Of a DNA stretch of 24,000 nucleotides, positions 1 through 23,769 are shown one piece after another. Below the pieces are notes generated by a model. The model saw only the letters and a list, made by a program, of their open reading frames with translations. It made no database searches and was not told the DNA's origin. Source of the DNA: Haladaptatus sp. DJG-WS-42. GTDB taxonomy: Archaea > Halobacteriota > Halobacteria > Halobacteriales > Halococcaceae. The stretch spans positions 1,642,422-1,666,421 of the forward strand of contig NZ_CP147243.1 of NCBI RefSeq assembly GCF_037198285.1, read 5' to 3'. Numbering within the stretch: the first letter of the stretch is position 1; each line of letters starts with the position of its first letter. The position numbers were made by a program, and so were the translations under genes.

Positions 1-599
1 TTAAGCCGACGGAGCAACGCTTCTTTAATATTTCCTGCTTCCGAAGACGCTTCGACCCTGTCGATGAGATCAGAGAGGTCGTAGTACTTACCGTAATCTT
101 CCTCTGCCTGTTCGATAACCCGGGCAAGGAGGCCTGACTGCGCTTGCGTCTCATCAATGTCGAGGAGAAATAGCCAATCACCGACGTCCAGCTCTGAGGG
201 GTAAAGTTCGAACCCTTTGTGGAAATATTCCTTTGCTTCCTCGTACTTATCCTCCAATCCAGCTGGATAATAGACAGAGACTGGGTACGACTGGGGGGAT
301 AGCCCCCAATCATTCAAACTATCTGATTCAGGATTCTCGACCTGCAAACTCCAGTAGATACCCATTGCATCTACGATGATGCCAGAAAGGTTTCCTTTGG
401 CCGCCGCTGGAAGAGTCATTAGCTCCTCCATTAGAACCCCTAGCGTGTGCGACTTGCCAGTTCCTCGCTTGCCACAAATGGTGACCATATGAGGGTTGTT
501 GAGATCTAGATACACGTCCTCGGTGAGTTCTCCATTAGTGTCAAATCTCCGACCGAGATACGCAGCGAGTTCTTCCTTGTCACCACCGATGAGCGTCAT
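1..599 (-). CDS. HerA/DUF87-like P-loop ATPase, N-terminal part only (3' end lies beyond the window)
   Basis: Hand translation of the minus strand from the ATG at 599-597 gives MTLIGGDKEELAAYLGRRFDTNGELTEDVYLDLNNPHMVTICGKRGTGKSHTLGVLMEELMTL... It has Walker A GKRGTGKS in the context typical of HerA/DUF87 ATPases. I checked positions 1-120 and 450-599 codon by codon and found no in-frame stop; the middle was only read through quickly. The ATG overlaps the TGA of the upstream 1286-aa gene (ATGA at 596-599). The gene is absent from the ORF track because it has no stop in the window. Confidence 0.7.
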   Translation of the reverse strand, partial: MTLIGGDKEELAAYLGRRFDTNGELTEDVYLDLNNPHMVTICGKRGTGKSHTLGVLMEELMTLPAAAKGNLSGIIVDAMGIYWSLQVENPESDSLNDWGLSPQSYPVSVYYPAGLEDKYEEAKEYFHKGFELYPSELDVGDWLFLLDIDETQAQSGLLARVIEQAEEDYGKYYDLSDLIDRVEASSEAGNIKEALLRRL

Positions 600-3500
600 T
601 GATCTCCACCCTCCTGTGTCCATCGTCTTATCAACACGGCCTGCATCATTTCCGCTGTATCAGAGTTGATATCGAGCGCTCTGACTAACTGACGTACCTC
701 CTCTTTGTTATTTAGGTCCTTGACGGCATCATTTAGGCTTGTTCCGGCGACCATTACCTTATCCGGGGAGACAGAACCGCCCAAGTCATGGATGATCTCT
801 TCGAGATCATTCTCGTCGAAGGAGGCTTCTGCGAGCTTCTTTTCTGTGTCAATCCACTGACCCCAGAGACTGTTGTACTGCTTGGCATCAAATTCACCAA
901 GAGACTGGTCCAGCATCTCGGAACATTGGTTGAGGAAGCGTTTCCCCCGATCAAGAAGTGCTTTCTCCCCTTCTGGAATTTGTGGCTCGTACACCTTGAG
1001 CTGTTCTCTCGCACGTTCTATTTTCTCTTCTTCTGTTTCGACGGCACTTGTAAAGCGAGACTGGAGGTTCTCTGAGTCTCTATCCAACAATTCCTGGTGT
1101 TCGGATGAATCGTACTGTTCAACGTTTGGGACGATTTGCCGCCGAGTACGACTGAGGTCCTCGTACACCATGCTGGAGTTAATTTCATCATCAATGAATC
1201 GTTGGATGGTACTCTCGATATCAGCACCTACGATAGATTGGTTGACATCGTGGCTGGCAAGATGGTCCCCAATGCTATCGATACACGAAATCTCGATACC
1301 GCCTGACTCGATATCAACATTACCGTTTATTAGTAAATCCAGGGTTTCCTTGCCAGAGATTACTGAATCCTTTTGACTGACAATATCTTTTGCCTCCTCA
1401 AGCTGTGCTACTAGATGTTCGAGCGAATCGTGGATTAGGAATGGTAGCCCTGCTTCAAATTCGTTGAAGTCGCGTACAGCACTGATGTAGTCCGATACAT
1501 CTGTCTCTGCATACACATCGTACGACTGTATGGTCCGGATACGCTGTTTTAGATTATCGGAATCAGTCGTGAAATCGGTCTCAAGATCCTTCTCAAGTCT
1601 CTTGAGGTCAGCGACGTCATCAATGTCATCCAACTCACCATACTGTTGCTTCAGTGATTCAAGTTTTGTGAGACCCTCGTTGTCAACTCTCCCTTGGAGG
1701 AGAGCTTCCCGCTTGATAGCATCGTGGTATGAGCTTTTTACACTCTCACGAACCACCGTGACTTTACTATCAGGGAGAATAATTTTATCATCAGTGTCAC
1801 CACCCAGCACGAATGGGGCACCATGAAGGCTAACTACCGCCAAGATAAGATACAGATATGCTTTTGCGACGGGTGCTACTTTTGAGGTCCCGAAAACAGT
1901 TTTGACGATCTCGCTGAAGCTTAATTCATCATTCTCCGCCTCTTTGAGTTCCTCCTCGAGTTTGTTGATTACCTTACGGGTACCTTCGCTGAATTCGTCT
2001 GTGACTTCGTAGGAGTCTCCGTCCTTCTTGAGGAACTGCTCTGACTCGAACTCAGAGAACATCTGTCTAAGCTCATCACCAGACTTCTTACCTCGGTCAA
2101 CATTCGGAATATTATTCATCGTTTTTTGAATATCAAAATCAATGCCCTCGTAGAGCAATTTTCCCTTCTCTTGGAGGTTTTTTGTTGCATAGACAAAATC
2201 AAGGACATCTCCCCCAATATGTCCATTCGAGAATCCGAGAAGTTCAGTGACGTATTCTCCATTTCCGTACTGCCCTTTAGCGTTCCTGGTCACGTACCTC
2301 AACACCGAGAACATTCTCTCCGGCGATGTGAGCGCACCTACTTCATCAGGTATCTCTCTCCCGAGGATATCAAGAAGGGAAATGTTGAGGAAAACTCGAT
2401 ATCGCTTGAATTCATCTTCCCCGGGATAGATGTCGTTAATGTATGCTAGAAGTGTGCTGGTACTATTTTCACTATCGATATGTTCATCGATTTGTCTGTT
2501 CAAATCATCTTGAATATCGTCAGAGATGTTTGAAGCTCTATTATGGAGTTCACGGACAACGAATTCAGCCGGACGCTTGTCGTCTTCGCTGGGGCCAAGA
2601 TGGATCCCAAATTTGAGTGCATCAGACTGTTTGATAGCCTCCCACTCTTCCGGAGGTCCCGATGTGCCAACTGAAAGGTACACTTTTTCTGTGTACTGAG
2701 TATCTCCGAGAACATCTATTTCTAGATAATTTGACCTGGAGATGATTTCAGAGCCTCCTTCGAGTTGGGTCTCCAGAGCATCTTTCCAGAGGTCCAGAGT
2801 ACTTTTGATATCTGCCTCGAAATTTTCAATTGTATCCTCGACAAGTTTCGACGTTGGTTTTGTTGGGTCCGTAGTCGCGTTACCTGTGAGTATGTTTTGG
2901 TAGAGCACCAAGTATTCGCCATCACGGTCGATATATTCTGATTGGGATGCTGCCTGCCGAGTTAATTCCTTGACGCTGGTGGTGAGTTCGATTTCAGCAT
3001 CCTTCGCAAGCTGCTCGACTTGTGCAGGAGAGAACAGTGCAGGTTGGTCGTTCCGATTTAGAATTGCTTCACGGGCGATAGCAGTAAGAATCCGTTGGAG
3101 CGAACGTGAGTCTGAATAGTCTTCCTCTATCTGTTCTTGAATCGTTCGTTCCCCAGGCAATTGGCTCAGTTCTGCCCGCTTGATTTTCCCTAATCGGTTA
3201 CGAACTGAATCACCATGCTTGTACAGATACTCCCCATCAATACGACTCTCTCCGTCCCATTCTCGAAGGAACGCCATGAGAATCGTTTTAAAAGCTCGAA
3301 ACGAAAGGACCACGCGATTGTCTCCATCCCCTGCTTTCTGGGAATCGACGACAGAGAGAACAATCTCGAGGGCATCGGTAGTAAATGGATAGGCGTAATC
3401 TTCATCTCCGGACTCGGCATTGTCGAGCGTTTCGTGCCACTCCGGAACCTCGTCACGATAGTCGGTGAGTAATGGATACGTGTAGAGATGATATAGTTCG

Positions 3501-4456
3501 GAGAACAGATGCATTGTCTCCCCTTGCGCGAGGTTAATGCTATAATTCACGCTACCTCTTATTCGATCAACCGTGTCCTCGGGAGCTTGGATGGAATCTT
3601 CAAGCTCCTCCAAACCAACCGAGTTAATGAAGAGAATGTATGGGGGCGCTTCCAAATTGGCGTGCGAGTCCACTGTGCTTCTCATCATCTCCCGGATGAG
3701 TCCTTTTAGGTCGCTTTTTTCGTTTGGCCCAATGCCGCGGAATGTCTGTTCAAACTCGTCAATGTAGAACGCGGGATATTTCCCTTCAGCCTCGTAGTAT
3801 TCTTCGGCAAACCAAGTGACTGTATGATGGGCACCAGACGCTGAGAGAGACTTACAGGCACGAGAAATGTCATCTATTGACTCGGGTTCGTCGAAGAGTT
3901 GTTTGAGTTCGTCGGAGAGTTTTGGAGGCAGGTTATCGTATCTATCTAGCGACAGCGTAGATTTCTCATCGTCGAACCGGTCTAGGAGAACGCGTTCTGT
4001 CAGTTTCTCAGACTTGAGCACCGATTCGTATATAGCGAGAAGCAGTTCGTTAGGCGTGTTGTTATCCTGAAGGCTAATCTGGAAACAGTCGATTTCTGTC
4101 TCGCCATAGGTGAGTTGTGGGAACTCGACACCTCCTATTTCGGTAGGACCTAGGCAAAGGTCGGCGACACATTTCATAAGGACTGTTTTACCAGAGCCAT
4201 AAGCACCGTGTAGAAATACCCCGGGTGTTTCCGTGGTCTGTAAGCGATTGTGGATACTGTTCAAAATCTCTTGGCGGCGGGGAGTGAGTATAAAATCCGA
4301 CTCGTTCTCAACGAATGCCTCGAAGGTAGGGAGGTCGTTCTCATTGATAAGTTTCTGACACTCCTGTCGAACCCGACGGATTGTTTGCTGATCGAGAACC
4401 TGTACAACTTTATCTCGAACATCTTCGTATGACTTCTGCTGTTGTGTCGAACTCAT
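596..4456 (-). CDS. Large (1286 aa) acidic P-loop NTPase, BrxC/PglY-like by size and PglZ neighbourhood
   Basis: This is an uninterrupted 3.9-kb ORF in AT-rich DNA. It has N-terminal Walker A GVFLHGAYGSGKTVLMK and a candidate Walker B AFYIDEFE. It lies in the same operon as a PglZ-domain gene, and its start codon overlaps the stop of the 104-aa gene (ATGA at 4453-4456). The family assignment is contextual and was not verified by alignment. Confidence 0.6.
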   Translation of the reverse strand: MSSTQQQKSYEDVRDKVVQVLDQQTIRRVRQECQKLINENDLPTFEAFVENESDFILTPRRQEILNSIHNRLQTTETPGVFLHGAYGSGKTVLMKCVADLCLGPTEIGGVEFPQLTYGETEIDCFQISLQDNNTPNELLLAIYESVLKSEKLTERVLLDRFDDEKSTLSLDRYDNLPPKLSDELKQLFDEPESIDDISRACKSLSASGAHHTVTWFAEEYYEAEGKYPAFYIDEFEQTFRGIGPNEKSDLKGLIREMMRSTVDSHANLEAPPYILFINSVGLEELEDSIQAPEDTVDRIRGSVNYSINLAQGETMHLFSELYHLYTYPLLTDYRDEVPEWHETLDNAESGDEDYAYPFTTDALEIVLSVVDSQKAGDGDNRVVLSFRAFKTILMAFLREWDGESRIDGEYLYKHGDSVRNRLGKIKRAELSQLPGERTIQEQIEEDYSDSRSLQRILTAIAREAILNRNDQPALFSPAQVEQLAKDAEIELTTSVKELTRQAASQSEYIDRDGEYLVLYQNILTGNATTDPTKPTSKLVEDTIENFEADIKSTLDLWKDALETQLEGGSEIISRSNYLEIDVLGDTQYTEKVYLSVGTSGPPEEWEAIKQSDALKFGIHLGPSEDDKRPAEFVVRELHNRASNISDDIQDDLNRQIDEHIDSENSTSTLLAYINDIYPGEDEFKRYRVFLNISLLDILGREIPDEVGALTSPERMFSVLRYVTRNAKGQYGNGEYVTELLGFSNGHIGGDVLDFVYATKNLQEKGKLLYEGIDFDIQKTMNNIPNVDRGKKSGDELRQMFSEFESEQFLKKDGDSYEVTDEFSEGTRKVINKLEEELKEAENDELSFSEIVKTVFGTSKVAPVAKAYLYLILAVVSLHGAPFVLGGDTDDKIILPDSKVTVVRESVKSSYHDAIKREALLQGRVDNEGLTKLESLKQQYGELDDIDDVADLKRLEKDLETDFTTDSDNLKQRIRTIQSYDVYAETDVSDYISAVRDFNEFEAGLPFLIHDSLEHLVAQLEEAKDIVSQKDSVISGKETLDLLINGNVDIESGGIEISCIDSIGDHLASHDVNQSIVGADIESTIQRFIDDEINSSMVYEDLSRTRRQIVPNVEQYDSSEHQELLDRDSENLQSRFTSAVETEEEKIERAREQLKVYEPQIPEGEKALLDRGKRFLNQCSEMLDQSLGEFDAKQYNSLWGQWIDTEKKLAEASFDENDLEEIIHDLGGSVSPDKVMVAGTSLNDAVKDLNNKEEVRQLVRALDINSDTAEMMQAVLIRRWTQEGGDQ

Positions 4457-4767
4457 GGCTTGATATGATGGAATGTTAGTGCGTGGGACAGTTCGTCTGC
4501 TTTCTCAATTATGTAGATTCGTTCCCCTGAGACCCTATGTTCCTGAATCATGTTTGGATACATTGCGAGGACAATTCGTTTTCCGTCTCCATCGTCAGTC
4601 TCGCGTCTTTGAACACCCGTGGACCATTCTTCACCGAGGTACTGTTGGATATCTTGAATGAATTCTCGAAGTTCGTCGTAACTAGATCGGACGTCGTCGA
4701 TCGTGATAACGGCGATATTCTTTCCGGGCTGACCAATATACTCACGGATGTTAATAATCAAAGACAT
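4453..4767 (-). CDS. Hypothetical protein (104 aa), operon member
   Basis: The ORF fits exactly between its neighbours, with a 1-nt overlap (TAATG) at 4767 and a 4-nt overlap (ATGA) at 4453-4456. Its composition is acidic like the neighbours. I recognised no motif. Confidence 0.6.
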   Translation of the reverse strand: MSLIINIREYIGQPGKNIAVITIDDVRSSYDELREFIQDIQQYLGEEWSTGVQRRETDDGDGKRIVLAMYPNMIQEHRVSGERIYIIEKADELSHALTFHHIKP

Positions 4768-5534
4768 TAGGAAAGTAGTTGGATGTATTCCTTACCACCA
4801 CGACGGTACACTCGAACTTCATTGTCTGCTTCAAGAGCGGACACAACCTCTTCCAGCCGTGAGATATCCCACCCAAACGTCATTACCGCCTTGTCTTCTA
4901 ATGCGGAGTAAGACATCTCTGAGTCTTCTTCACGGATTATTTCCTTGATGAGTGTCCTATCGTCACCACGTAAATTAGTGTATATAGACGGGTTGATTTC
5001 ATACCCGTTATCAACCTTCTCTACAATGCCGAAAGATTGGAGTATACCTCCTATTGTCCCGGCAGTTACGGTGTTTCCTCCTTCCCCCTCCGTCATCAAC
5101 GTGTTAATTTCATCCGTTAGGGAGGAACCGAGGCCATATTTTCCCGAGTGTACCTTATCATCAAAGGCACCGATAGTGCGGTGGAAGTAAGTGAAATTGG
5201 TTCTTGACTTTCGCTCTAGCAATCGGAAGGCTTCTTGTTCAAATCTATCAGCATCCAGGAGTTGGCGACCTTCTTCGGTGAGTGATACAACTCCCTCATC
5301 GTCTCCATGGATGATTTCTATTGATGTGTTGTTGTCATCAAAGGCGAACTTTAGCCACTCGTCAACATCCTTGAATGGTTGAGATTCGCTTAGCTCATTC
5401 TCCTGTTCCATGAGCTCACGAAGCTCTGTTTTCGTGACCTTGTCCTTGTATCCCACCATCTCCACCAAGAGTCTAAGCCCTCGCAAGAACTCTTGACGTC
5501 CGATTCGTGGAATCGATTTATATGTCCTTGTCAT
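4767..5534 (-). CDS. Hypothetical protein (255 aa), possible C-terminal winged-helix domain
   Basis: The ORF overlaps the PglZ gene 3' end by 17 nt (5518-5534). Its C-terminus SYSALEDKAVMTFGWDISRLEEVVSALEADNEVRVYRRGGKEYIQLL resembles a wHTH. It has no catalytic motifs. Confidence 0.6.
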   Translation of the reverse strand: MTRTYKSIPRIGRQEFLRGLRLLVEMVGYKDKVTKTELRELMEQENELSESQPFKDVDEWLKFAFDDNNTSIEIIHGDDEGVVSLTEEGRQLLDADRFEQEAFRLLERKSRTNFTYFHRTIGAFDDKVHSGKYGLGSSLTDEINTLMTEGEGGNTVTAGTIGGILQSFGIVEKVDNGYEINPSIYTNLRGDDRTLIKEIIREEDSEMSYSALEDKAVMTFGWDISRLEEVVSALEADNEVRVYRRGGKEYIQLLS

Positions 5535-8271: not shown

Positions 8272-8719
8272 GACATTAACGACCTAGCCGTACTAGTAAT
8301 ATTTTTATGAGATAGTATATCAAGCGACATAATATCTTCGGGTAGTCTCGAAGAAGCAGAACTAAGCAGAAAACTACGAATCTCCAGAACAACTCAAAGC
8401 CGGATAGTAATGTGTCGGCCTGAGAAAGGCGTGGCAAACATGACTTAGGTAAGTATTCCAGCTCAGACGGGGTTTTAATCTACACATCGTTAAATGTGAT
8501 TTTAGATGATGGTTATATTTTAGCATAATGTAGTGCCGTACGGCTCGAGGCAGAGTGTTGGTTTCCAATTCAAGACCAGGGGCTGAACCGTGCCTACTGA
8601 TGTTGTTCGAATTGGTCGCTCTGGTTATGTGACAGACCTACCTGCTGATACCTGTCTGTGTTAGACCTCACCGAGTTACGAAGGGCCTATTACATACAGA
8701 ATTGAATCACTGATAGAGA
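8272..8719. promoter_or_regulatory. Divergent promoter/control region between the PglZ operon and the TGT operon
   Basis: This is a 448-bp AT-rich non-coding spacer between divergent first genes. There are TATA-like A/T runs near both genes: ATAAAAATAT on the minus strand at about 8305-8316, and CTATTACATA at about 8685-8694, about 30 nt before the ATG at 8720. An inverted repeat ACAGAC...GTCTGT lies at about 8633-8660. Promoter positions are guesses. Confidence 0.35.
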
Positions 8720-10768
8720 ATGCGAGGCTTCCGAGTAAATCACCGAGGTGAAGACGGGTATGGGCGCCGAGGCCAACTCCACGTTCGGAGAGGACCTGTA
8801 GAGACACCCGCACTCTTCCCCGTGATAAACCTCATCGGAGGCAGCACCCTTGCGTCAGGTAGCGGATGGCGACATTTTAGAGATAACATCCTCCACACCG
8901 AAGAACTCCAAGGAACGATGTTTCAGGCTATGAGTTTCTTGGACTATGGTGTCACGGCCAACACACTTCGTCGGTGGCGGCAGCGCACATTTGAGGAGCA
9001 TCTTCAAAACTGGGATGAGTGGGATAAATCTAAACATATCAATTCTCCCATTTTTATCGACTCGGGTGGCTACCGCCTGATGAATTCGGATACGTTCGGT
9101 GAAGCGCCTACAGAGGGTGGTGCTGAGAATGAATGGGGAATTTATACCAATCCGGATAGTGTCCTGAAATTGCAAGTAGATTTTGGCGGGGACATTTTTG
9201 CGACATTAGACTACCCTATTCCCCCAGATCTTAAAGAAGATGAGCAAGATGAGCGGATGGAACGCAGCATTGAGAGCGCTGTTCGTTGTTTAAAACTAAT
9301 AGATGACCCTGACAAGATCGAAATTCTGGAAGATGGGGATGAGAAAACCGTTGAGCGCTTGAAAAATAGAAAAGCAGCTGACGAAGAACCAGCCGTCTTT
9401 GTCGCGATCCATGGCCACGATCATGAGACGATTCATTGGTATGTTTCTGAGTTCTTAGAACGAGCAAAAGAAGAGGGAGTAAGTGACCAGTTCCACGGCT
9501 TTGCTATCGGCTCGTTGGTTCCGCTACGTTCGAAGATTGATGTTCTAGTCGATATCGTCCAGGGTGCCACCGAAGCGATCGGAGACCGAGACGATATCGC
9601 ACTTCACGTATTCGGTATTGGAGGCAAGCAGGCATCCCTATTGTCATTACTTGGGGTTGACACATTTGATTGCTCCAGCCATATGCAATCTGCTCGCTTC
9701 AAAAAATACCTCGTACCGGAAACGTGGGACAACGTAAAACTCAAAGATATTGACAACTATCTGACTAGTGGTGGATGGCCCTGTAACGTACCAGAATGCC
9801 CGTTGTGTAGTAATTCGACAGAATTGATCCCAGATGAGTTCATGAGTTATGTCGATTCTGAGGATGGGATATCTCCTCAGAAATTTAAGGAACTGATATA
9901 CAGAGAAGCGACGTATGGTCAAGATGGGTTCACAAAGGGATGGCTGTACGGCTTGCTTGCCCGTCACAACTTTTCGGTATATAATCGAGAGATGCAGCGT
10001 GTGCGGAACGCAATTGATGAGAATTGGTTGCTCGACTATGTCATTCAGTGGGCTCGCAAAGACGATCAAATTGAGCGTGGACTAAAGCGAGCTCAACTTA
10101 GGAATCCAGAACTTGAAGCAGAGCTGAAATCACGCGAGGCATATGACCTACTTTTAGGCTCTGAAATTGCAACCGACCAAGTGAAACTCTCTGAGTTCGG
10201 TGCCGATTTCCCTGAGGTGGAATCTAACCGGATCTCGCTGAAACATACTCCACGAGATTTCAATATTGCGAACAAGGACTACGATCCACATCGTGACGAT
10301 AGTTCTAATAAAGACATTCTACTGATTATTCCATGTAGCCAGCGAAAGCCCTACTCTGAATCTCGTACACACAAAGCTGTGCTCAACAGACTGGAGCCAG
10401 TGAGAGATCGAATCCATAAAGTTACAATCTCTGGTATGTATGGCCCAGTTCCAGAGACAGAGGAAACAGCAGACGCTGTGCTGGAATACGAATATGTTCT
10501 GGCCAAACAAGATACAGAACAAATTGAACTCGTGACAGAACGCCTGGTTGATTACCTGCGAACTCACGGTGATTCATTCGACACCATTGTCAGCTATGCT
10601 GTGAGTAAGCAGTACCGGCAAGTCATCGAGAAAGCGTTCAGTGAATACGGACGAGGAAGTGTATTCCCAACGGATCCTGAAATGTTAGGATTCAAACAGC
10701 ATTACAAGCGAGAGAATATACGTGAGTTACAAGAATTCCTAAGCGTTCCTGAGCAAGAATTGATTTAA
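8720..10768 (+). CDS. TGT-fold (tRNA-guanine transglycosylase superfamily) enzyme fused to an ArcS-type C-terminal domain, 682 aa
   Basis: The N-terminus is typical of TGTs (RRGPVETPALFPVINL). TGT catalytic-type motifs are IFIDSGGYRL, HGFAIGSLVP and HVFGIGGKQASLLSLLGVDTFDCSS, plus a Cys cluster CNVPECPLC. The C-terminal domain carries PCSQRKPYSESRTH (10331-10372). This matches exactly the PC-X3-KPY-X2-S-X2-H signature reported for archaeosine synthase ArcS. Confidence 0.8.
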   Translation: MRGFRVNHRGEDGYGRRGQLHVRRGPVETPALFPVINLIGGSTLASGSGWRHFRDNILHTEELQGTMFQAMSFLDYGVTANTLRRWRQRTFEEHLQNWDEWDKSKHINSPIFIDSGGYRLMNSDTFGEAPTEGGAENEWGIYTNPDSVLKLQVDFGGDIFATLDYPIPPDLKEDEQDERMERSIESAVRCLKLIDDPDKIEILEDGDEKTVERLKNRKAADEEPAVFVAIHGHDHETIHWYVSEFLERAKEEGVSDQFHGFAIGSLVPLRSKIDVLVDIVQGATEAIGDRDDIALHVFGIGGKQASLLSLLGVDTFDCSSHMQSARFKKYLVPETWDNVKLKDIDNYLTSGGWPCNVPECPLCSNSTELIPDEFMSYVDSEDGISPQKFKELIYREATYGQDGFTKGWLYGLLARHNFSVYNREMQRVRNAIDENWLLDYVIQWARKDDQIERGLKRAQLRNPELEAELKSREAYDLLLGSEIATDQVKLSEFGADFPEVESNRISLKHTPRDFNIANKDYDPHRDDSSNKDILLIIPCSQRKPYSESRTHKAVLNRLEPVRDRIHKVTISGMYGPVPETEETADAVLEYEYVLAKQDTEQIELVTERLVDYLRTHGDSFDTIVSYAVSKQYRQVIEKAFSEYGRGSVFPTDPEMLGFKQHYKRENIRELQEFLSVPEQELI

Positions 10769-10842
10769 TTTAGACTTTGATCTACCTACGACTCAAGTAG
10801 TACTGTCGGAAGAATTAAGACATCTTGGTCTGACTTTCCGTT

Positions 10843-11286
10843 ATGTCGACTCTGCTGGTTCAGTCCTGCTCTAAATCAAAGAATTCACCAGGGAGAGCGG
10901 TTCCTGCGATGGAATTGTATTCTGGATATTACTACAAAATTATCAAAAAAGCGAGAAGAGAAGGGGATCTTAGATCGGATATTGACATCTGTATCCTCTC
11001 CGCAAAATATGGACTAATTGATGCAAACGCAGAGATTACAGAGTACGATCAGAAGATGAATCGGGTGCAGGCTCTCGATTTGCAGGAGGATGTCGAAACA
11101 ACCCTAATCAAGAAATTGAAAGAGAATAATTATAAAAAAGTCGTCATTAATGCAGGTGAAGATTATCGAGTTGCACTTAAAAGATTCATTCAGAATTCTG
11201 ATATTGAAGTCGAGGTATTACACGGTCAGCTCGGAGAACGTGGAAGCGTTCTGAAAAAGATGATTCGTGAATCACAGAACACATAA
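10843..11286 (+). CDS. Small stand-alone paralog of the ArcS-type C-domain (DUF6884/DUF5591-like), 147 aa
   Basis: The motif order is shared with residues about 535-650 of the upstream protein: LLVQSCSKSK vs LLIIPCSQRK, ILSAKYGLI vs ISGMYGPV, and ITEYDQKM vs VLEYEYVL. It lacks the KPY..S..H part of the signature. The domain-family name is from memory and was not searched. Confidence 0.55.
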   Translation: MSTLLVQSCSKSKNSPGRAVPAMELYSGYYYKIIKKARREGDLRSDIDICILSAKYGLIDANAEITEYDQKMNRVQALDLQEDVETTLIKKLKENNYKKVVINAGEDYRVALKRFIQNSDIEVEVLHGQLGERGSVLKKMIRESQNT

Positions 11287-11289
11287 CAA

Positions 11290-12537
11290 ATGCCAGATTT
11301 AACTCAACGCAGCAAGTATGCTGACTTTTCCATAACGTCGACTGCTGGAGAAGCACGCACTGGAGAGTTAGTAGTAGGTGAGAAAAAATTTGAAACACCC
11401 ATGCTCTTCCCTGTCATCAATTTCTATGGTGGTGGGAGAAAAGGGAGCCTATTTGGAGGAAGCACCCACAGAACAGTAAAAGAGCTTATTAATGGGGATG
11501 ACTGCGTCGGCGGCGTTTCTTGCAGCGAATATTTCCCGGGCTCTATGCTTTCAGTTGGGTCGCTAACTGACTATGGAATCAGCGAATCTTTACTGAAGAC
11601 GTATCTGGAGAAACCAATTAGCGAAAGACCGGAATTCTCTGGATTTGAGGGATTGTTATTCGTCGACTCTGGTGGGTTCAAAAATCTCTCACAAGGCGGT
11701 TTAGACGGCTCTGATTTTCAGATGGAACTCAACCAACACCGCGTGTTCGACATGCAACGTCAGCTTGGTGGTGACATCCTCGTCAACCTCGACCTCCCGA
11801 TTACCGAGGATGACACGTATGAAGAACGCATCGAGAAAGCAAAAACAACAGCAGAAAATGCAGTTGAATTTGCTCGGCACACTCAATCATACCCATGTGC
11901 TGCGTATCTTTCTGTCCATGGCTATGATTATTCGATGATCGATACCTTCTTTGAGCAAGTCGAATCCGTGTTTGGTTCTCTCGATTTGACTGAGATATTT
12001 GATGGAATTGCCTTGGGAAGCCTTGTACCAAAAAAGGACAACAAGTCTACTCTCATCGAAGCGATTTCTGGTTGTAAGCAGGTGATGGCTGAACGAGGCT
12101 TTGAGAATCATCCATTACACGTGCTAGGGATCTCCGGGAAATCGATGCCACTGTTAGTTGGGCTGGGCGTAGATAGCTTTGATTCGTCATCCTACATTCA
12201 AGCCGCGATCAATGGAAAATACTACACGTCTTTCTTGGAGACTGAACGCGTTGATGACGTTGATTTGACTAAGTGCGACTGCCCAGTCTGCTCTTCACCC
12301 CTTCTTCGGGAACGGATGAAAGGGAACGCCGAGTATCGAAAGGACCAGATGGGCCCTGTTGCTGTCCATAATATGATTATCCAGCAAAAGGAGTTGTCGA
12401 GAATGCGCAAACTGATTCAGAGCGGTCCGGAAGCCTTCGTGGATTATCTTGGAAACGAACTCGGACGTCACCGGTCAGTCGGACGATATGCCCACGATGT
12501 TGTTAACAAATCATTCGGAGGATACGATGGAATATAA
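11290..12537 (+). CDS. Compact TGT/DpdA-like transglycosylase, 415 aa
   Basis: The N-terminus is ARTGELVVGEKKFETPMLFPVINF. Motifs LFVDSGGFKN, DGIALGSLVP and HVLGISGKSMPLLVGLGVDSFDSSS are present. It has a canonical zinc site CDCPVCS-X-H: Cys codons at 12274, 12280 and 12289, and His at 12367, giving exactly 25 intervening residues as in bacterial TGT C318/C320/C323/H349. It has no PUA or other C-terminal tRNA-binding extension. It starts 3 nt after the previous stop. Confidence 0.8.
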   Translation: MPDLTQRSKYADFSITSTAGEARTGELVVGEKKFETPMLFPVINFYGGGRKGSLFGGSTHRTVKELINGDDCVGGVSCSEYFPGSMLSVGSLTDYGISESLLKTYLEKPISERPEFSGFEGLLFVDSGGFKNLSQGGLDGSDFQMELNQHRVFDMQRQLGGDILVNLDLPITEDDTYEERIEKAKTTAENAVEFARHTQSYPCAAYLSVHGYDYSMIDTFFEQVESVFGSLDLTEIFDGIALGSLVPKKDNKSTLIEAISGCKQVMAERGFENHPLHVLGISGKSMPLLVGLGVDSFDSSSYIQAAINGKYYTSFLETERVDDVDLTKCDCPVCSSPLLRERMKGNAEYRKDQMGPVAVHNMIIQQKELSRMRKLIQSGPEAFVDYLGNELGRHRSVGRYAHDVVNKSFGGYDGI

Positions 12538-14095
12538 ACCAAAAGTCAACGAAATCAACGAATTCCTGGAAATTGCAAGCGACTTTGAGGATCCGTTAGA
12601 ACTAATCAGAGAGTCACTATCCAACTCTTACGATGCCGGTGCAACTGATGTGTTAATCCGGATTCGAACTGGAGCAACTGGATCTGACATTACTATCGAA
12701 GATGATGGCGAAGGCATGAGTCAGCGAGACTTGGAGTCTTTCTTCGACTTAGGTAACTCCAGAAAGACAGATGGGATCGGGTACAAAGGCCACGGGACCA
12801 AAATATTCTACAAAAGCGATGGAATTAAAGTAAATACTAGCAAGAACAAAAAAACGCTTCATGCGGAGATGGAGCAACCTTGGGAGAAGCTCAATAACCG
12901 TGAGTTACCAACCTATTCGGTCACTGAACACGATGCCCCAGCGGAGCGGTCTGGAACACAAATAAAGATTCAAGGGTTCAAGTCTGGGGAAGGGTTTAGC
13001 CCTGAATCACTCACCTACAACAAAATCCACAACTATCTGAAGTGGAAGACGATTGCGGGCTCAACTGGTCACTTCTTCGAAGACGATTCACGAGAAATGA
13101 ACATCACCGTCGATCTCGATTCTGGGATCGATGACACAATGGATGAGCTTCAAACGACGAATCACTTTGAGTTCCCCCGTGAGCAATTGCGCCCTGGCAC
13201 AGGTGACTTCCCAGAGGAGCGAATGTGCAAGCACTATGGCCCAATAGAGCTCGAAGTTCCCTTCGATGGTGGTCATACTACATTAGAGATCGTCGGAATG
13301 GTTGGCGGGAAGGCGGCTCGAAATGAGTTGCCAACATACGGTCGACACTCAACGCAGTTCGGTATCTGGCTTGCAAAAGATCATATCAAAATTGAGCGGC
13401 TCAACGAAGCGATCTCTCACGATAACGAATTCATTCATTTCTTATTCGTTGCAAATTGCCAAGATATCGAACTCTCAGCGAACCGAGGGAAGATTCGAAA
13501 TAAGGCGAGCAAAGTTTACCAGACAATAGAAGAAGAGCTCAACCATTACCTCTCAAAAGTTGCTCGCGACCCATGGTTCAAGGAGTATCTGGAAATTCGA
13601 AAGCGAGCCAGCATTTCTCGACAGGCGCAGACGCATTCAGAATCGGTTTCTCAGAGAAAGGAACGGATTCACTCTCGTAATTCATTTGAGCCCACAAACG
13701 TGGCTGAGGTCCTTTTAGGACTCCAGCATTCGAACCGCTTTGAATCAAACAACACGGTTACGATCGAAGACTACCAGCCAGCAGAAGAGGTTGAGGCAAT
13801 CGTTCGTATTGGAGATGACCTCTTGGGTTCCTCACTGCAACAAGCGGTCGTGGATTTCTTCGACTCTGGAACTCCCCTGGGCTCTACTGAACAAATCATC
13901 GCATGGGAACTCGGGGACCTTGATAAGTTGCGTGAGATTGAACGAAAAGGTTACTTAGACGCTGAAATTGAATGTGACTTCGACAAGCCTGAAGTTCGAT
14001 ATATGCGCAACGGAAAAACCGAGCACATCGATATCCTGCTCGTTAAACCTCGGTTCCACAGAACAGATCAATTGGCCCAGACACTGGCTGAATGA
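12527..14095 (+). CDS. GHKL (HATPase_c / MORC-like) ATPase
   Basis: Bergerat-fold motifs are present: N-box RESLSNSYDAGA, G1 IEDDGEGM and G2 GYKGHGTK. I prefer the ATG at 12527 (MEYKPKVNEINEF). It overlaps the upstream gene by 11 nt. The ORF-track start at 12449 would overlap by 89 nt. Confidence 0.8.
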   Translation: MEYKPKVNEINEFLEIASDFEDPLELIRESLSNSYDAGATDVLIRIRTGATGSDITIEDDGEGMSQRDLESFFDLGNSRKTDGIGYKGHGTKIFYKSDGIKVNTSKNKKTLHAEMEQPWEKLNNRELPTYSVTEHDAPAERSGTQIKIQGFKSGEGFSPESLTYNKIHNYLKWKTIAGSTGHFFEDDSREMNITVDLDSGIDDTMDELQTTNHFEFPREQLRPGTGDFPEERMCKHYGPIELEVPFDGGHTTLEIVGMVGGKAARNELPTYGRHSTQFGIWLAKDHIKIERLNEAISHDNEFIHFLFVANCQDIELSANRGKIRNKASKVYQTIEEELNHYLSKVARDPWFKEYLEIRKRASISRQAQTHSESVSQRKERIHSRNSFEPTNVAEVLLGLQHSNRFESNNTVTIEDYQPAEEVEAIVRIGDDLLGSSLQQAVVDFFDSGTPLGSTEQIIAWELGDLDKLREIERKGYLDAEIECDFDKPEVRYMRNGKTEHIDILLVKPRFHRTDQLAQTLAE

Positions 14096-14097
14096 CG

Positions 14098-15252
14098 CTA
14101 TAATCGCTTAACCCACGGATTATTTTCAGGCTCAAACTCACTCTTTTTCCCCGAATAGGAAGCTGTACTATCATCTAGGATACCTAAGTGGACCAATTGG
14201 CGAGTGAAATTAAATAAGATATTTGACCGAACTAAAGATCTCCACGTGTCTGTATTGTATATCTCTTCTCTCTGATCGTTTCTCAATAATTCCCTCGCAG
14301 TCTCCGTATTGGTCACAAATAGGTTCAGAAATACGTTCGGATACTGTTCGACTACTGTTCGAAGAAGTTCAGTGAAGACGAATTCACGGTTCTGCTGATT
14401 CACAGCCTCTACAAATTGTCTGAAATCTGGGTGCCGCTGATATGCGGTTCGCAGTAGTACTGCTAAGGAAGGAATTTCGTCGATTAAAGGACTATAGTTG
14501 ATGTCCTGCTTTTTTGATGCTAGGTCGTCCAGCGTTTCAATCCCTTCGCCACGGAGAGTACTCTTTGCAAGTTTTCCATGCTCTGAAAGAGAGAAGGTAC
14601 TTTCTCCATCTTTGGAAAGGAACCCACACAAGCTCGCTCCCTTGATAGTATATTTCGCAGTGGACTGGGCAACACCATATTTTTGAATAATTTCGGATTC
14701 AAGTTTGGACCGGCTTGTTAATTCAGAGATTGCCAGTACCGGTGCATATGCATTCAATGGCTGTGTCAAATACAGAGTTGAGACAACAGAGCTACTCCCA
14801 GGATGAGAGAATTGATACTTGACCCGCGACTGAACGTCAGATACCTGAGCCGCGTCTATCTCAGTAGCTGGCTCGTTCCATGAAACTGCCCCTGTGCTCG
14901 TTGTCGAGATTGTCCCTGCGCCATGGCTCAGCAGCACGTCCTCTACTCTTTTTAGATCACTGTGAGGAGCGGCGAGATAGCTCAAATGGGACCCACGTTG
15001 GTACGTTAGAGTTTGGCCGACTCCTTTGAGGAGGTCCTTGCTTCCCTTAACCTCTATTGCAAATACTTGACCTCGACCAGTTTGCCCAATGATATCTGGG
15101 TACCGGCCATCAATCGTTATTGAGTGCGGATTCGCCCGTTTCAGAACGTTACTGTATGTGTTGTAGTGGCTGCCTGGAACATGCACAAGGAAATCCCAAC
15201 CACGAGTAGAAAGTTCGTCTACAACCGTTTCAAAAACATCCGATTCCTCCAT
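14098..15252 (-). CDS. Putative PD-(D/E)xK nuclease-fold protein with a long C-terminal extension, 384 aa
   Basis: The N-terminal region has E13, then YPD53IIG followed by VFAIE67VK69G. The spacing and hydrophobic context are typical of the restriction-endonuclease-like fold. The C-terminal approximately 250 aa are unassigned. The stop codon lies 2 bp from the GHKL gene stop. Confidence 0.55.
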   Translation of the reverse strand: MEESDVFETVVDELSTRGWDFLVHVPGSHYNTYSNVLKRANPHSITIDGRYPDIIGQTGRGQVFAIEVKGSKDLLKGVGQTLTYQRGSHLSYLAAPHSDLKRVEDVLLSHGAGTISTTSTGAVSWNEPATEIDAAQVSDVQSRVKYQFSHPGSSSVVSTLYLTQPLNAYAPVLAISELTSRSKLESEIIQKYGVAQSTAKYTIKGASLCGFLSKDGESTFSLSEHGKLAKSTLRGEGIETLDDLASKKQDINYSPLIDEIPSLAVLLRTAYQRHPDFRQFVEAVNQQNREFVFTELLRTVVEQYPNVFLNLFVTNTETARELLRNDQREEIYNTDTWRSLVRSNILFNFTRQLVHLGILDDSTASYSGKKSEFEPENNPWVKRL

Positions 15253-15430: not shown

Positions 15431-16438
15431 TCAGATGTTGTCGAGAAATCCCCTCCGTTGTTCCATCTTATCGCGCTCTCCTCGCTGATCGTAATGCTTC
15501 TCAATCACGTCTGGACTCACATTCGCCCGGTCGCTGACCACGCGCTCTGGTACATCTTCGGACAGCCAGTACGTAATCGCGCCGCGCCGCACGTGTGGTG
15601 AGCGGCTTGATGGACACCGAGACACTGAATTACGATTCGTCGCCTCACACGTCTCGACGTCTCTGTCGTGCGGACATCCATCGGTGTAGAAGCACGGACG
15701 GGTCACCTCGTAGATGATGTGTTGAATGGTACTGTGGTGGAGTCGCCCTTGCTTCGATGCCAGCAGTGGCTCTCGTCCGGCATCGTCGGTTACGTCGGGA
15801 CGCTGGTCGGCCAGCCAGTCATCCAGCAACTCACACATCTCGTCCGAAAGCGCGACGTAACGCTCCCCTGACTCCTGGTTGTTCAGGGGAATTCCCGTGT
15901 CCTTCCGGTGGACAGTCTGGATGTACTGCTCCTCCGAGTCGTAGTCGTGAACGTCGAGTGCGTACATCGCCCCGCGGCGCATCGCTGTCCGCCACGCAAG
16001 TGTCAGGATGACGTGCCGGACCGAGGCGTATCGGTACATCTCAAGATACGTGAGTACTTGCTCGGCTCGCTCGGCGTCGAGCATCTCGGTTCGCACGGCG
16101 TCGCTCGCCGAGAGGATTGGCAGTTGGACCTTCGTGTGGAGGTCGGGGTCGACTGCATCGATGGATTCGAGGAACTTGATAAACACGCGGATGGTGACCA
16201 TCTGGGTCTTCTCGGAGACTTTGGACAGATCTCCGTCGTTTCTCCGCCAGATGCGGTACTCGTAGAGCGTCCGTCCGGTGAGATTGTTCAGGTTCTCGAT
16301 GTTCTGGTCGTGACACCATCCAACGAAGTACCGAAGTCGGGAGCGGTGTGACTGCAGGGTCTGGACGGCGACTTCGTTCCGGCGATGGTCGAGATACAGT
16401 TCGAGTGCGCGCTCGGGTGCGATTGGTTCGAGTGTCAT
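15431..16438 (-). CDS. Tyrosine recombinase / phage-type integrase (XerC/D-like), 335 aa
   Basis: It has an N-terminal SAM-like core-binding region (LELYLDHRRNEVAVQTLQSHRSRLRYF). The catalytic motifs are AWRTAMRRGAMYALDVHD (Arg), SPHVRRGAITYW (H-x-x-R) and VIEKHY (Tyr). It is GC-rich, unlike the adjacent island. Confidence 0.9.
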   Translation of the reverse strand: MTLEPIAPERALELYLDHRRNEVAVQTLQSHRSRLRYFVGWCHDQNIENLNNLTGRTLYEYRIWRRNDGDLSKVSEKTQMVTIRVFIKFLESIDAVDPDLHTKVQLPILSASDAVRTEMLDAERAEQVLTYLEMYRYASVRHVILTLAWRTAMRRGAMYALDVHDYDSEEQYIQTVHRKDTGIPLNNQESGERYVALSDEMCELLDDWLADQRPDVTDDAGREPLLASKQGRLHHSTIQHIIYEVTRPCFYTDGCPHDRDVETCEATNRNSVSRCPSSRSPHVRRGAITYWLSEDVPERVVSDRANVSPDVIEKHYDQRGERDKMEQRRGFLDNI

Positions 16439-17604: not shown

Positions 17605-17919
17605 GAATCGCTCTTGGGTGAGGCACTTGAAGCAATCCAGTCGGTCGAAGACGGTCATGCTCGCGGCAAAGGCGTCATCACTGTTTAGGTGAGAGAAAGT
17701 TGGAAAATCAGCCGTGGTGATGGTGGTTCATTTAACTTCGCGTGAACTCAGCACGGTTTATTCAAGAAGAGCTTTCCTGAGTTTGAGATTCAATCTATGT
17801 TTAACGGAGAGTGACAAATTCACGCAATCTTTTTCTAATTAGAAATTGTCATTTTGTTTGTTGTGCCCTTCTCACCATTTACGCCTATAAAAATCATCCA
17901 AACAGAAATTCACAATTGG

Positions 17920-23619: not shown

Positions 23620-23769
23620 CGCCTCTGTGCCCACCTCTGGTCGCTCTGGCGGTTCATTCTCTCGTACCCATTCACCACACCACCTTCTAATAGTGACGGC
23701 CAAACAGTTTGGAAAAATTAAGCGTCGGCATCAACGAATAAAGCCCTGCATGAGAGACGTACACAGGCA
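23620..23769. promoter_or_regulatory. Divergent gvpF / gvpA promoter region
   Basis: This is a 150-bp spacer between divergent gvpF and gvpA. A/T-rich TATA-like elements are GAAAAATTAAG (about 23712-23722) and GAATAAAG (about 23736-23743), upstream of the gvpA ATG at 23770. No transcript starts can be derived from the sequence alone. Confidence 0.4.

Follow-up and report, generated by a model that had tools for sequence, protein, structure and literature searches.

A TGT cassette beside a PglZ operon in a haloarchaeal island: a candidate DNA-marking writer with interchangeable readers

Do two divergent operons in a low-GC island of Haladaptatus sp. DJG-WS-42, one encoding a PglZ-like protein and ATPases and the other TGT-family enzymes, constitute one defence system or two? 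An initial annotation had proposed a single composite, in which deazaguanine modification replaces PglX methylation in a BREX-like machine. The window referred to below is the whole stretch analysed, 24,000 nucleotides of contig NZ_CP147243.1 (positions 1,642,422 to 1,666,421, forward strand). The TGT cassette (8676-15237) is called module M, and the PglZ operon, which extends from 8271 to beyond position 1, module R.

The island and its borders

Both operons and a PD-(D/E)xK gene lie within an island of ~46% GC, with an integrase adjoining. GC content is 42-50% over positions 1-15,000 as against 56-64% in most of the right flank (the exception being a low-GC patch at ~17.5-18.5 kb), which bears out the atypical composition earlier ascribed to both operons. 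The right border of the island is a tyrosine recombinase (15431-16438, minus strand; Pfam Phage_integrase and Phage_int_SAM_1, with XerC/XerD-like NCBIfam matches), where GC climbs from ~46% to ~60%, and the right flank consists of host genes (TrmB, pirin, gvpL/F). An AT-rich spacer (8272-8719) separates the divergent operons and is exactly the 448 bp previously given. As a single shared control region it is putative at most; only its last 44 bp (8676-8719) are common to L003, the locus whose TGT cassette is most closely related. Gene content and layout are as first described.

The TGT cassette

Module M starts with a 682-aa ArcS-like protein (8720-10768, plus strand) that combines a TGT domain (Pfam, 1.9e-29) with DUF5591, the ArcS C1 domain (2.1e-15). 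It has DSGG and GVDTFDCSS motifs, a Zn site (Cx4Cx2C...H) and an exact ArcS C1 motif, PC-X3-KPY-X2-S-X2-H, in the form IIPCSQRKPYSESRTH. It is followed by a 147-aa DUF6884 protein (10843-11286, plus strand; Pfam DUF6884 1.8e-16, PADLOC PDC-M57A 1.8e-15 and DpdC 1.2e-6), distantly homologous to DpdC and YaaA, in which the CxxxK (C9..K13) and LSAxxG (S53 A54 G57) motifs, as defined in PMC11701544, are conserved. The third gene encodes a stand-alone TGT catalytic domain of 415 aa (11290-12537, plus strand; Pfam TGT 3.3e-24, with a weak PADLOC DpdA match at 3.4e-8). Residues D126 (DSGG), D295/D298 (DTFDSS) and C329/C331/C334/H360 of this protein are invariant, and the named members among its 423 relatives are almost all haloarchaeal. 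It falls far under the cut-offs of the ArcTGT and DpdA equivalog models (30 bits against 200 for DpdA); it is probably a DpdA-like DNA transglycosylase. The fourth is a GHKL (Bergerat-fold) ATPase of ~522 aa (12527-14095, plus strand; Pfam HATPase_c_3 2.1e-12), whose start has been moved from the TTG of the listed ORF at 12449 to the ATG at 12527 on the evidence of 511-532-aa homologues. Its ExxxNxxDA, DxGxG and GxxGxG motifs are kept in 35/35 sequences, its gene always comes next after that of the 415-aa TGT and overlaps the TGT stop codon, and the order DUF6884, TGT, GHKL is kept in nearly all of 35 loci. The plus-strand operon had been called rich in modification enzymes, and Pfam concurs (TGT-DUF5591, DUF6884, TGT), with the GHKL and PD-(D/E)xK proteins in addition.

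The last of these, a 384-aa protein encoded convergently (14098-15252, minus strand), has an N-terminal PD-(D/E)xK nuclease-type motif (P52-D53...E67-x-K69, kept by 90% or more of 11 homologues) and no domain match in Pfam, PADLOC or NCBIfam. An accessory of the cassette, it is encoded inside the segment common to the window and L003 and occurs beside PglZ-type and DpdJ/DpdK-type partners alike. Together with M it could form a self-contained restriction-modification unit.

The closest bacterial counterpart is Dpd (dpdA-K of Salmonella Montevideo and other bacteria), in which DpdA, DpdB and DpdC produce dPreQ0 and dADG (summarised in PMC12839542). Like Dpd, the cassette needs preQ0 and combines a TGT-family transglycosylase with an ATPase helper and an enzyme related to DpdC, and sister loci pair the cassette with a DpdJ-like helicase and a DpdK-like PLD nuclease. 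Apart from the sub-threshold DpdA score of its TGT, the window cassette differs in having a GHKL ATPase in place of the ParB-like DpdB, a short DUF6884 form of DpdC and an extra ArcS-like enzyme; DpdD-K are missing from the window, where the neighbour is the PglZ-HerA operon instead. Viral 7-deazaguanine pathways (DpdA1-4 with ArcS2 and related enzymes; PMC10516641, PMC6884629) provide the other comparison. Phage ArcS2, which has a DUF5591 core, and DpdA2 together make dG+ in DNA (PMC10516641), and the window shares that core, with its exact C1 motif, next to a DNA transglycosylase; by analogy, dG+ is the likely product here. The window cassette is, on the other hand, cellular rather than viral, its DUF5591 is fused to a TGT domain of its own, and its role would be self-marking for defence instead of restriction evasion.

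These comparisons suggest that the substrate of M is DNA rather than tRNA, and retention of catalytic motifs by all M enzymes favours a functional writer. We regard it as very improbable that RNA, be it tRNA or some other kind, is the substrate of the TGT, ArcS-like and DUF6884 enzymes (in a spare archaeosine pathway, for example, or a stress-linked tRNA change) and that the defence genes are incidental neighbours. Haloarchaea do make archaeosine, and the best NCBIfam matches are to tRNA enzymes (ArcTGT TgtA and ArcS), far under the family cut-offs; the scores, however, reach no more than a third of the equivalog thresholds, and Pfam detects no PUA or other RNA-binding domain in either TGT protein of the cassette. 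Moreover, the cassette resides in low-GC islands with integrases, is obligately coupled to the GHKL ATPase, and in sister loci regularly adjoins DpdJ-like, DpdK-like, GIY-YIG and GmrSD-type genes, and DNA is a known substrate of DpdC-type and ArcS2-type enzymes (PMC10516641).

The PglZ operon

Module R consists of five minus-strand genes, encoding, in order, the PglZ-like protein, 255-aa and 104-aa proteins, a 1,286-aa P-loop ATPase and HerA, with all four junctions overlapping by 1-17 nt. As the initial annotation had it, the operon is devoid of modification enzymes: Pfam, PADLOC and NCBIfam searches of the five genes find neither a methyltransferase nor a PAPS-reductase nor any other modification domain.

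The 917-aa PglZ-like protein (5518-8271, minus strand) scores above the cut-off for Pfam Phosphodiest (33.5 bits, 4.6e-8) and below it for PglZ (19.3 bits). Its N-terminal half is helical/mixed; the C-terminal alkaline-phosphatase-superfamily domain has an intact two-metal site, and D523, T556, D695, H699, D745, H746 and H897 never vary in a set of 20 sequences whose identity goes as low as 14%. In the PDB, the best match to the AF2 model (pLDDT 86.8) is PglZ from a BREX complex of Acinetobacter (9zn5_B, E 3.1e-8); PorX ranks next, ahead of NPP enzymes. The family is tiny, with 22 matches among 1.84 billion representatives.

The 255-aa protein (4767-5534, minus strand), always encoded directly after PglZ across relatives, is probably a winged-helix DNA-binding adaptor, judging by weak DUF7343 or HTH_45 matches in a few of 10 family members. 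The 104-aa protein (4453-4767, minus strand) is conserved in position only: its gene lies between those of the 255-aa and 1,286-aa proteins in every relative, and it has no domain match and almost no invariant residue. Neither protein has a P-loop/Walker A motif. The 1,286-aa P-loop NTPase (596-4456, minus strand) has an AAA_16/AAA_22/STAND-like N-terminal domain, with Walker A GAYGSGKT and a weak AAA_16 match, and a long helical C-terminal part. Walker A residues G87/G89/K90 and Walker B residues D233/E234 are invariant; Pfam finds AAA_22 in 10/10 family members and AAA_16 in 6/10, and a PDB sequence search with the window protein gave no match. The last gene specifies a HerA/FtsK-type (DUF87) ATPase with Walker A GKRGTGKSH. 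Its 5' part (1-599, minus strand; ~199 of ~412 codons, the remainder past the window start) lies outside the range 596-15252 annotated initially. It shares 88% identity with the complete 412-aa DUF87 proteins of L001 and L002, of which the L001 orthologue matches PADLOC mad8 at 6.4e-25 and several HerA models (the full-length Haladaptatus protein is P0127).

BREX, BRC and the PglZ operon

How far is this operon "BREX-like", as first claimed? The PglZ fold, with its top match in a BREX complex, sustains the term; the operon also has in common with BREX a large ATPase in BrxC's position in the gene order and small accessory proteins. The sequence of the ATPase gives the term no support: it has no detectable BrxC or PglY signature, Pfam finding neither DUF6079 nor DUF499 in 10 family members. 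BREX also lacks HerA, the window operon has no PglX or other methyltransferase, and the window PglZ is so divergent that its 22 matches include no canonical PglZ. BREX comprises types 1-6, of which type 4 uses phosphorothioation (PMC11185695), a precedent for a swapped epigenetic mark.

A 7-deazaguanine-marked system of this kind had been thought new. A PglZ/BrxC-like ATPase/HerA/TGT composite, BRC (BREX-Related Capture), had nevertheless been predicted by comparative genomics (PMC12839542, Nucleic Acids Res 2026), and the window locus is a divergent variant of that published concept. BRC likewise has a core of PglZ, very large P-loop ATPase and HerA/FtsK translocase, a TGT that would place 7-deazaguanine in self DNA as a mark, and a rare distribution over haloarchaea and bacteria. 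Might the locus simply be a BRC family member, with TGT an optional self-marking add-on and the differences due to divergence past the reach of profile searches? The four common component types and the report of BRC from haloarchaea speak for this, and the spacing of accessions in the published BRC alignments fits PglZ, one gene and a small NTPase, resembling PglZ followed by the 255-aa and 104-aa genes. We nonetheless think membership improbable. The STAND NTPase and GNAT of BRC, as queries taken from machine-read text of the paper's supplement, match nothing in the window or 79 loci (tblastn E > 0.1); a Walker A motif is missing from both the 104-aa and the 255-aa protein; 10 members of each family give no DUF6079 or DUF4007 profile signal; and the legible BRC lists have no species in common with our loci. 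BRC is stated to have no DpdC homologue (PMC12839542), whereas DUF6884 is a conserved core component here. The window locus also adds the ArcS-like TGT-DUF5591 protein and the GHKL ATPase, and its TGT cassette is a separately mobile unit that is found with non-PglZ partners as well.

Linkage of the two modules

A comparison of co-occurrence across genomes, proposed at the outset, gives opposite answers from the two sides. Seen from R, the modules belong together: in 11/13 informative close relatives found through PglZ or HerA, the TGT cassette adjoins the PglZ operon (the window, L001, L002, L062, L064, L066/67/71, L068/72, L070, L075, L080/81 and L082, which may be partly non-independent samples). 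Two further loci found in this way, L065 and L069, end in queD/E/C genes. Relative to each other, the modules lie in at least four ways (divergent, convergent, and in tandem on one side or the other), so that linkage has been kept through rearrangement. In the more distant L077 (HerA 55% identical) everything forms one co-directional operon, TGT-DUF6884-PglZ-256-112-1288-HerA-QueD-QueC-QueE-FolE2.

Seen from M, the PglZ operon is absent from 29/33 TGT-ascertained loci. The DpdJ-like helicase is present in 20 of these 29, about half of the 20 also having the DpdK-like nuclease (PADLOC scores of these partners in sister loci are 2.4e-44 for the helicase and 1.5e-11 for the PLD nuclease). The cassette closest to that of the window, in L003 (90% TGT identity, nucleotide homology confined to 8676-15237), likewise has a DpdJ/DpdK-type partner and not the PglZ operon. 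M thus does not need R. No TGT-cassette locus has both the PglZ operon and the DpdJ-like helicase (0/13 against 20/29; Fisher p = 2e-5 overall, and 0.044 on TGT-ascertained loci only), a pattern consistent with a single writer that takes one partner or the other.

Neighbours in a defence island are often unrelated systems, which counts against a one-system reading. The two modules could be independent: M a Dpd-like system complete in itself, whose effector is the 384-aa PD-(D/E)xK protein, the GHKL protein or both, and PglZ-ATPase-HerA a separate, modification-independent "capture" system that merely has integration hot spots in common with it. Movement of 8676-15237 as one unit (the left neighbour is different in L003) and the 29/33 loci devoid of the PglZ operon are consistent with stacking, as are the R-type operons of L076, L078 and L073, which have no nearby TGT. 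DruA and a UDG-family gene accompany the operon in L076 and L078; L073 has short flanks that contain PLD-like and PD-(D/E)xK-like genes. GHKL domains are known in some restriction enzymes, moreover, and the window GHKL protein weakly matches BbrUII/HgiDII in NCBIfam (3.4e-9). We consider stacking rather unlikely all the same, since chance leaves the R-side adjacency through at least four arrangements, the fused L077 operon with its preQ0 pathway and the strict exclusivity with the DpdJ-like partner unexplained. Nor can the 384-aa protein be a general effector, being present in only 11/36 clustered loci, about a third of cassettes, and several cassettes have no obvious nuclease partner besides the PglZ-type or DpdJ/DpdK-type module.

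A proposed writer with interchangeable readers

The reading that we prefer, to which we give a probability of about 0.55, is that M is a Dpd-like writer served by interchangeable reader/effector modules, here PglZ-ATPase-HerA, in a two-module defence system. R and M together are probably one mark-and-restrict system, to judge from gene neighbourhoods, because the PglZ operon nearly always adjoins a TGT cassette elsewhere. What survives of the composite-system proposal is functional coupling, in one direction only, for which "shared writer with interchangeable readers" is the better wording; that deazaguanine replaces PglX in a BREX machine overreaches.

In such a system, the 415-aa TGT would swap guanine in host DNA for preQ0 supplied by the host archaeosine pathway (many loci have genes for preQ0 synthesis or transport beside M, and many relatives carry their own queC/D/E genes). 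The GHKL ATPase is probably an ATP-dependent helper in the role that DpdB has in bacteria, and the DpdC-like DUF6884 and ArcS-like DUF5591 enzymes would convert the nitrile to dADG and/or dG+. R would read the mark and act on mark-less DNA, like BREX or the proposed BRC systems. M would be a portable cassette that elsewhere has other effector partners, such as DpdJ-like helicase with DpdK-like PLD nuclease.

The clearest exception to linkage on the R side is L074. Its nucleotide sequence matches that of the composite L075 at 92% identity and still includes a GHKL remnant of 127 aa, which marks L074 as a decayed composite. Its R reading frames are intact after loss of M, a point against one system and for stacking; a model in which R kills unmodified self DNA consequently needs R to be M-dependent, much as BREX is PglX-dependent, or silent there.

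Layout of the island

The two operons are divergent and lie 448 bp apart, as the initial annotation stated, within a low-GC island (window 1 to ~15,300, 42-50% GC, as against 56-64% for the greater part of the right flank). A tyrosine recombinase gene (16438..15431, minus strand; Pfam and NCBIfam) is located at the island border, and host genes follow on the right flank (TrmB regulator, glyoxalase, pirin, gvpL/F). The window is free of recognised tRNA genes; attachment sites, the island's left border and the larger part of HerA fall outside it.

The minus-strand operon, here called R for its candidate role as reader and effector, encodes a 917-aa PglZ-like protein (8271..5518), a 255-aa protein (5534..4767), a 104-aa protein (4767..4453), a 1,286-aa P-loop NTPase (4456..596) and the 5' part of a HerA/DUF87 ATPase (599..1, truncated at the start of the window; relatives have 412 aa). 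The R genes overlap by 1-17 nt at each junction. The operon had been said to lack any modification enzyme, and this is borne out: domain searches of its five genes find none, whether methyltransferase or PAPS reductase, and modification enzymes occur only in the adjoining TGT cassette. This plus-strand cassette (M, the candidate writer) encodes a 682-aa TGT fused to DUF5591 (8720..10768), a 147-aa DUF6884 protein (10843..11286), a stand-alone 415-aa TGT (11290..12537) and a GHKL ATPase of ~522 aa (12527..14095). A convergent gene (15252..14098, minus strand) specifies a 384-aa protein with a conserved PD...ExK motif.

Proteins of the PglZ operon

The 917-aa protein scores above the Pfam threshold for Phosphodiest and below that for PglZ (19.3 bits; cut-off 25). 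Its family is tiny (22 matches at E <= 1e-3 among 1.84 billion representative proteins), and the most distant of these matches do exceed the PglZ cut-off; sequence-profile search of the family yields no meaningful PDB match. Seven residues invariant in a 20-sequence alignment (D523, T556, D695, H699, D745, H746 and H897) make up, in full, the two-metal site known from the alkaline-phosphatase superfamily. AlphaFold run on the same alignment generates a model with pLDDT 86.8 and pTM 0.70 (replacing an unusable AF2 model from a 3-sequence alignment, pLDDT 38). The best PDB match of this model by Foldseek, aligned over its full length at E 3.1e-8, is 9zn5_B, the PglZ chain of the Acinetobacter BrxC-BrxB/PglZ complex; PorX, itself a PglZ-domain protein, ranks second, ahead of NPP enzymes. 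On the strength of the predicted structure, the designation "PglZ-like" is accepted at the level of fold only.

The 1,286-aa protein has a Walker A motif (GAYGSGKT) and a weak AAA_16 match. Ten members of its family match only AAA_22, AAA_16 and STAND-like models, with neither DUF6079 nor DUF499 at E < 0.1, and sequence-profile search finds no meaningful PDB match. This ATPase is BrxC-like by size, position and P-loop class only. Both small proteins lack a Walker A motif. The 255-aa protein has weak winged-helix matches in a few of 10 relatives and no Pfam match to DUF4007 in 10 family members, and its analogy is one of position; no recognisable feature was found in the 104-aa protein. DUF87/HerA closes the operon, both in the window and in all full-length relatives. 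(HerA relatives at 36-44% identity are treated as a different family because the one context read, locus L079, lies among housekeeping genes.) Assignment to MADS by way of a HerA match to PADLOC mad8 was rejected: no other mad model matched, and the MADS preprint mentions neither PglZ nor HerA.

Enzymes of the candidate writer cassette

The TGT-DUF5591 protein carries the exact ArcS C1 motif (PC-X3-KPY-X2-S-X2-H). The 415-aa TGT is a member of the TGT superfamily whose catalytic and Zn site is fully preserved (invariant DSGG, DTFDSS nucleophile region and CxCxxC...H), at 30.2 bits against NCBIfam DpdA (cut-off 200) and 3.4e-8 against PADLOC DpdA; it has 423 relatives, the named ones almost all haloarchaeal. 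The DUF6884 protein, with its conserved CxxxK and LSAxxG motifs, partial PADLOC DpdC matches (1.2e-6) and weak YaaA/DUF328 match (1.5e-5), is, as judged from sequence, a distant homologue of DpdC. (The best PADLOC match of the same protein, window 10843-11286, is the "phage defence candidate" model PDC-M57A, at 1.8e-15; no other window gene matches a PDC-M57 model, so that this candidate system is probably of other composition.) All Bergerat motifs are conserved in the GHKL ATPase.

Linkage seen from the PglZ operon

M and R had been proposed to form one system, and a check of co-occurrence upholds the coupling from the R side (11 of 13 informative loci adjacent to a TGT cassette, a figure that overstates independence because the loci may share ancestry) but not from the M side (4 of 33 loci with a PglZ operon). 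R was followed by three TGT-independent searches: a word-indexed protein search with PglZ, a metagenome scan with the PglZ alignment, and a HerA-profile search with context look-ups; flanks of up to 10 kb were examined. The order PglZ, ~255 aa, ~104 aa, ~1,290 aa, HerA is kept in every match. In the close family, set at a HerA identity of 64% or more and counted by distinct loci, the TGT cassette is adjacent in the window, L001, L002, L062, L064 (a reduced form with TGT-DUF5591 plus GHKL), L066/67/71, L068/72, L070, L075, L080/81 and L082. Two further loci, L065 and L069, end in queD/E/C at the contig end, and one, L063, is too short to judge. TGT is not found near the remaining two, L073 (short flanks; PLD-like and PD-(D/E)xK-like neighbours) and L074.

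L074, from Haloprofundus salilacus, is 92.3% identical in nucleotide sequence to the composite locus L075 of Haloarcula over the whole R operon. Homology extends over just the first ~320 bp of the GHKL gene, of which L074 retains a 127-aa remnant. This near-identity, together with the remnant, identifies L074 as a composite that lost M and kept R intact. (The stretch compared is L074:2180-11613; a TnpB-like gene precedes it and a GmrSD gene follows.) Loss of the modification partner should be intolerable with a classical restriction enzyme. The intact R operon of this decayed locus hints at an effector that is harmless to its own cell once the writer is gone, and suggests that R would require M for activity, as BREX requires PglX.

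Beyond the close family (HerA 51-59% identical), L077 has a single co-directional operon, HTH-TGT-DUF6884/YaaA-PglZ-256-112-1288-HerA-QueD-QueC-QueE-FolE2. No other observation speaks as strongly for a single functional unit. A sister branch in the same tier (L076:1247-12323 and L078:1420-12159, JGI metagenome 3300031898) has a DruA-family gene directly upstream, a 183-aa uracil-DNA-glycosylase-like gene downstream and no TGT, and may rely on another mark or on no mark at all.

In one composite locus a DUF6610 gene (L082:1111-1842) closely precedes the PglZ operon; DUF6610 has been renamed DpdA4, a subfamily of DNA transglycosylases restricted to archaeal viruses (PMC10516641).

Linkage seen from the TGT cassette

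A genome scan with the 415-aa TGT returned 33 haloarchaeal or nanohaloarchaeal loci, of which just four have the PglZ operon (L007, L028 and L029/L030). Nearly all of 35 TGT-bearing loci keep DUF6884 > TGT > GHKL as a core; 31 of the 35 also have TGT-DUF5591, its position and strand variable. QueC, QueE, QueD, FolE and YhhQ-like genes flank many of the cassettes. Twenty loci without the PglZ operon carry a helicase of 1,350-1,575 aa (PADLOC DpdJ, 2.4e-44), and about half of these have an adjoining 150-aa PLD nuclease (DpdK, 1.5e-11). The PglZ operon and the DpdJ-like helicase are never found together within 10-kb flanks (Fisher p 0.044 for TGT-ascertained loci, 2e-5 once all composite loci are added, with mixed ascertainment as a caveat).

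The closest relative of the window cassette, L003 of Salinigranum (90% identity for TGT, 86% for GHKL, 79% for the 384-aa protein), has a DpdJ/DpdK-type partner, and its nucleotide homology to the window is confined to 8676-15237. These limits, and the different partner, point to M with the 384-aa gene as a separate unit, exchanged between partners by recombination. M and R are variously head-to-head, in tandem with M upstream, in tandem with M downstream, or tail-to-tail, and this variety, with the L003 result, argues for repeated re-joining of the two modules.

One more module, the third to recur beside the TGT cassette, comprises co-directional proteins of ~310, ~280, ~975 (P-loop, zinc-ribbon) and ~231 aa, in L004, L009, L013, L014, L019 and L035 (for example, L035:1-6800 and L014:1423-2352). 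It adjoins the ~1,575-aa helicase of the DpdJ-like cluster, and has no Pfam or PADLOC family match. Kinship of the PglZ-operon proteins with those of this module (protein clusters c14-c18-c13-c11) was sought with hhalign and rejected, there being nothing beyond the P-loop.

Relation to BREX, BRC and Dpd systems

A deazaguanine-marked PglZ system had been put forward as new; the concept was already published as a prediction, under the name BREX-Related Capture or BRC (PMC12839542, January 2026). BRC is defined there by PglZ, DUF6079, a STAND NTPase, DUF4007 and HerA, to which a subset adds GNAT and TGT; it is reported from 45 taxa, haloarchaea among them, and, as the paper states, has no DpdB or DpdC homologue (PMC12839542). 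Four component types are common to BRC and the window locus. The HerA/FtsK translocase, universal in BRC, is likewise part of the window operon. In contrast, neither DUF6079 (the BrxC counterpart) nor DUF4007 (the BrxA counterpart) gives a signal in the window families, and BRC has an enzymatically active STAND NTPase (the BrxB counterpart, Walker A NLxGxxGxGKTF), whereas the small R proteins are devoid of a P-loop. TGT, GNAT or both are present in a subset of BRC; the window locus has TGT, lacks GNAT, and has DUF6884, TGT-DUF5591 and GHKL beyond the BRC set. The BRC STAND and GNAT sequences, as available from alignments in machine-read text with some errors, have no match in the window or in 79 loci, and the loci here share no species with the readable part of the BRC species lists; one TGT protein, P0123, is from Halorubrum ezzemoulense, for which a BRC locus has been published. 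The window locus may nonetheless belong to the published BRC set. (The PglZ protein and a BRC STAND sequence had no tblastn match in a plasmid collection.)

Likeness to BREX, also proposed initially, holds for PglZ at fold level, with 9zn5_B as top match. BREX has a BrxC/PglY-type ATPase (DUF6079, DUF499 or DUF2791), of which the 1,286-aa family shows no DUF6079 or DUF499 signal, and includes its own modification enzyme (PglX, or PAPS reductase in type 4), while the R operon has none. Dpd systems differ in their ATPase: DpdB is ParB-like, and no such protein is encoded in the window, where the coupled position belongs to a GHKL ATPase. Their restriction genes DpdD-K (helicases, PLD nuclease) are absent from the window; DpdJ/DpdK-like genes are present in sister loci that lack the PglZ operon.

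A proposed portable writer with exchangeable effectors

Gene neighbourhoods on the two sides indicate that R probably depends on M, and M is apparently independent of R. The most economical interpretation is that of a Dpd-like writer and of interchangeable effectors that would read its mark, PglZ-ATPase-HerA being the effector in the window. All support for the composite reading is comparative or predicted. We give roughly one chance in three to a single portable haloarchaeal 7-deazaguanine writer serving at least two, perhaps three, unrelated and mutually replacing effectors, with a PglZ-HerA branch distinct from published BRC. The writer would consist of DUF6884, TGT and GHKL, with or without the ArcS-like enzyme. 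Candidate effectors are the PglZ-ATPase-HerA operon and the DpdJ-like helicase with the DpdK-like PLD nuclease; a possible third is a five-gene module with a helicase and the 975-aa NTPase.

Writer chemistry can be modelled on DpdA, DpdB, DpdC and ArcS2/DpdA2. DpdA puts preQ0 into DNA with the help of the ATPase DpdB, and DpdC makes dADG (PMC12839542); a phage DUF5591-core ArcS2 together with DpdA2 accounts for dG+ in DNA (PMC10516641). The GHKL ATPase, coupled to TGT in all 35 loci, probably plays the part of DpdB. (MANTIS, a methyltransferase system without PglZ, serves as an analogy only, for ATPase-dependent modification.) The substrate is probably DNA rather than tRNA, since no PUA domain was detected and the neighbours are defence genes.

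If correct, this makes 7-deazaguanine a third mark usable by PglZ machines, after methylation and phosphorothioation, the first cellular rather than viral 7-deazaguanine DNA modification in archaea, and a plug-and-play epigenetic self-mark. The locus bears on the way in which PglZ complexes of BREX recognise a mark and then act, with mark chemistry and motor (HerA) both unlike BREX; dependence of the effector on its writer would mirror that of BREX on PglX. The asymmetric linkage leads to a clear genetic prediction, that an effector is always accompanied by the writer and the writer has several effectors as partners. This prediction is testable in haloarchaea, for which genetic tools exist and viruses are in culture, among them some with deazaguanine DNA of their own.

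Other neighbours and flanking genes

GmrSD/DUF262-type proteins, which as type IV enzymes cleave modified DNA, turn up repeatedly in the vicinity of the TGT cassette or PglZ operon (L011, L012, L020 and L026, cluster c28; L074:15034-17067), and GIY-YIG proteins of ~175-207 aa (cluster c12) occur in nine loci. Two nanohaloarchaeal MAGs carry the TGT cassette, one (L027) with a DpdJ/DpdK-like partner and the other (L028) with a PglZ-HerA operon. L029 and L030 (Halorussus halobius and Halorubrum xinjiangense plasmid p1) have identical tblastn coordinates and identities; these matches and the nanohaloarchaeal cassettes suggest recent horizontal transfer.

In the right flank of the window, a second low-GC patch (~43%, 17500-18500) interrupts the high-GC sequence and holds a 222-aa ORF (17854..18522, plus strand; no Pfam match) between the TrmB-family regulator and glyoxalase genes. 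Two GvpL/GvpF-family genes on the minus strand (21413..20634 and 23703..22975, together spanning window 20634-23703) mark this flank as part of a gas-vesicle gene cluster.
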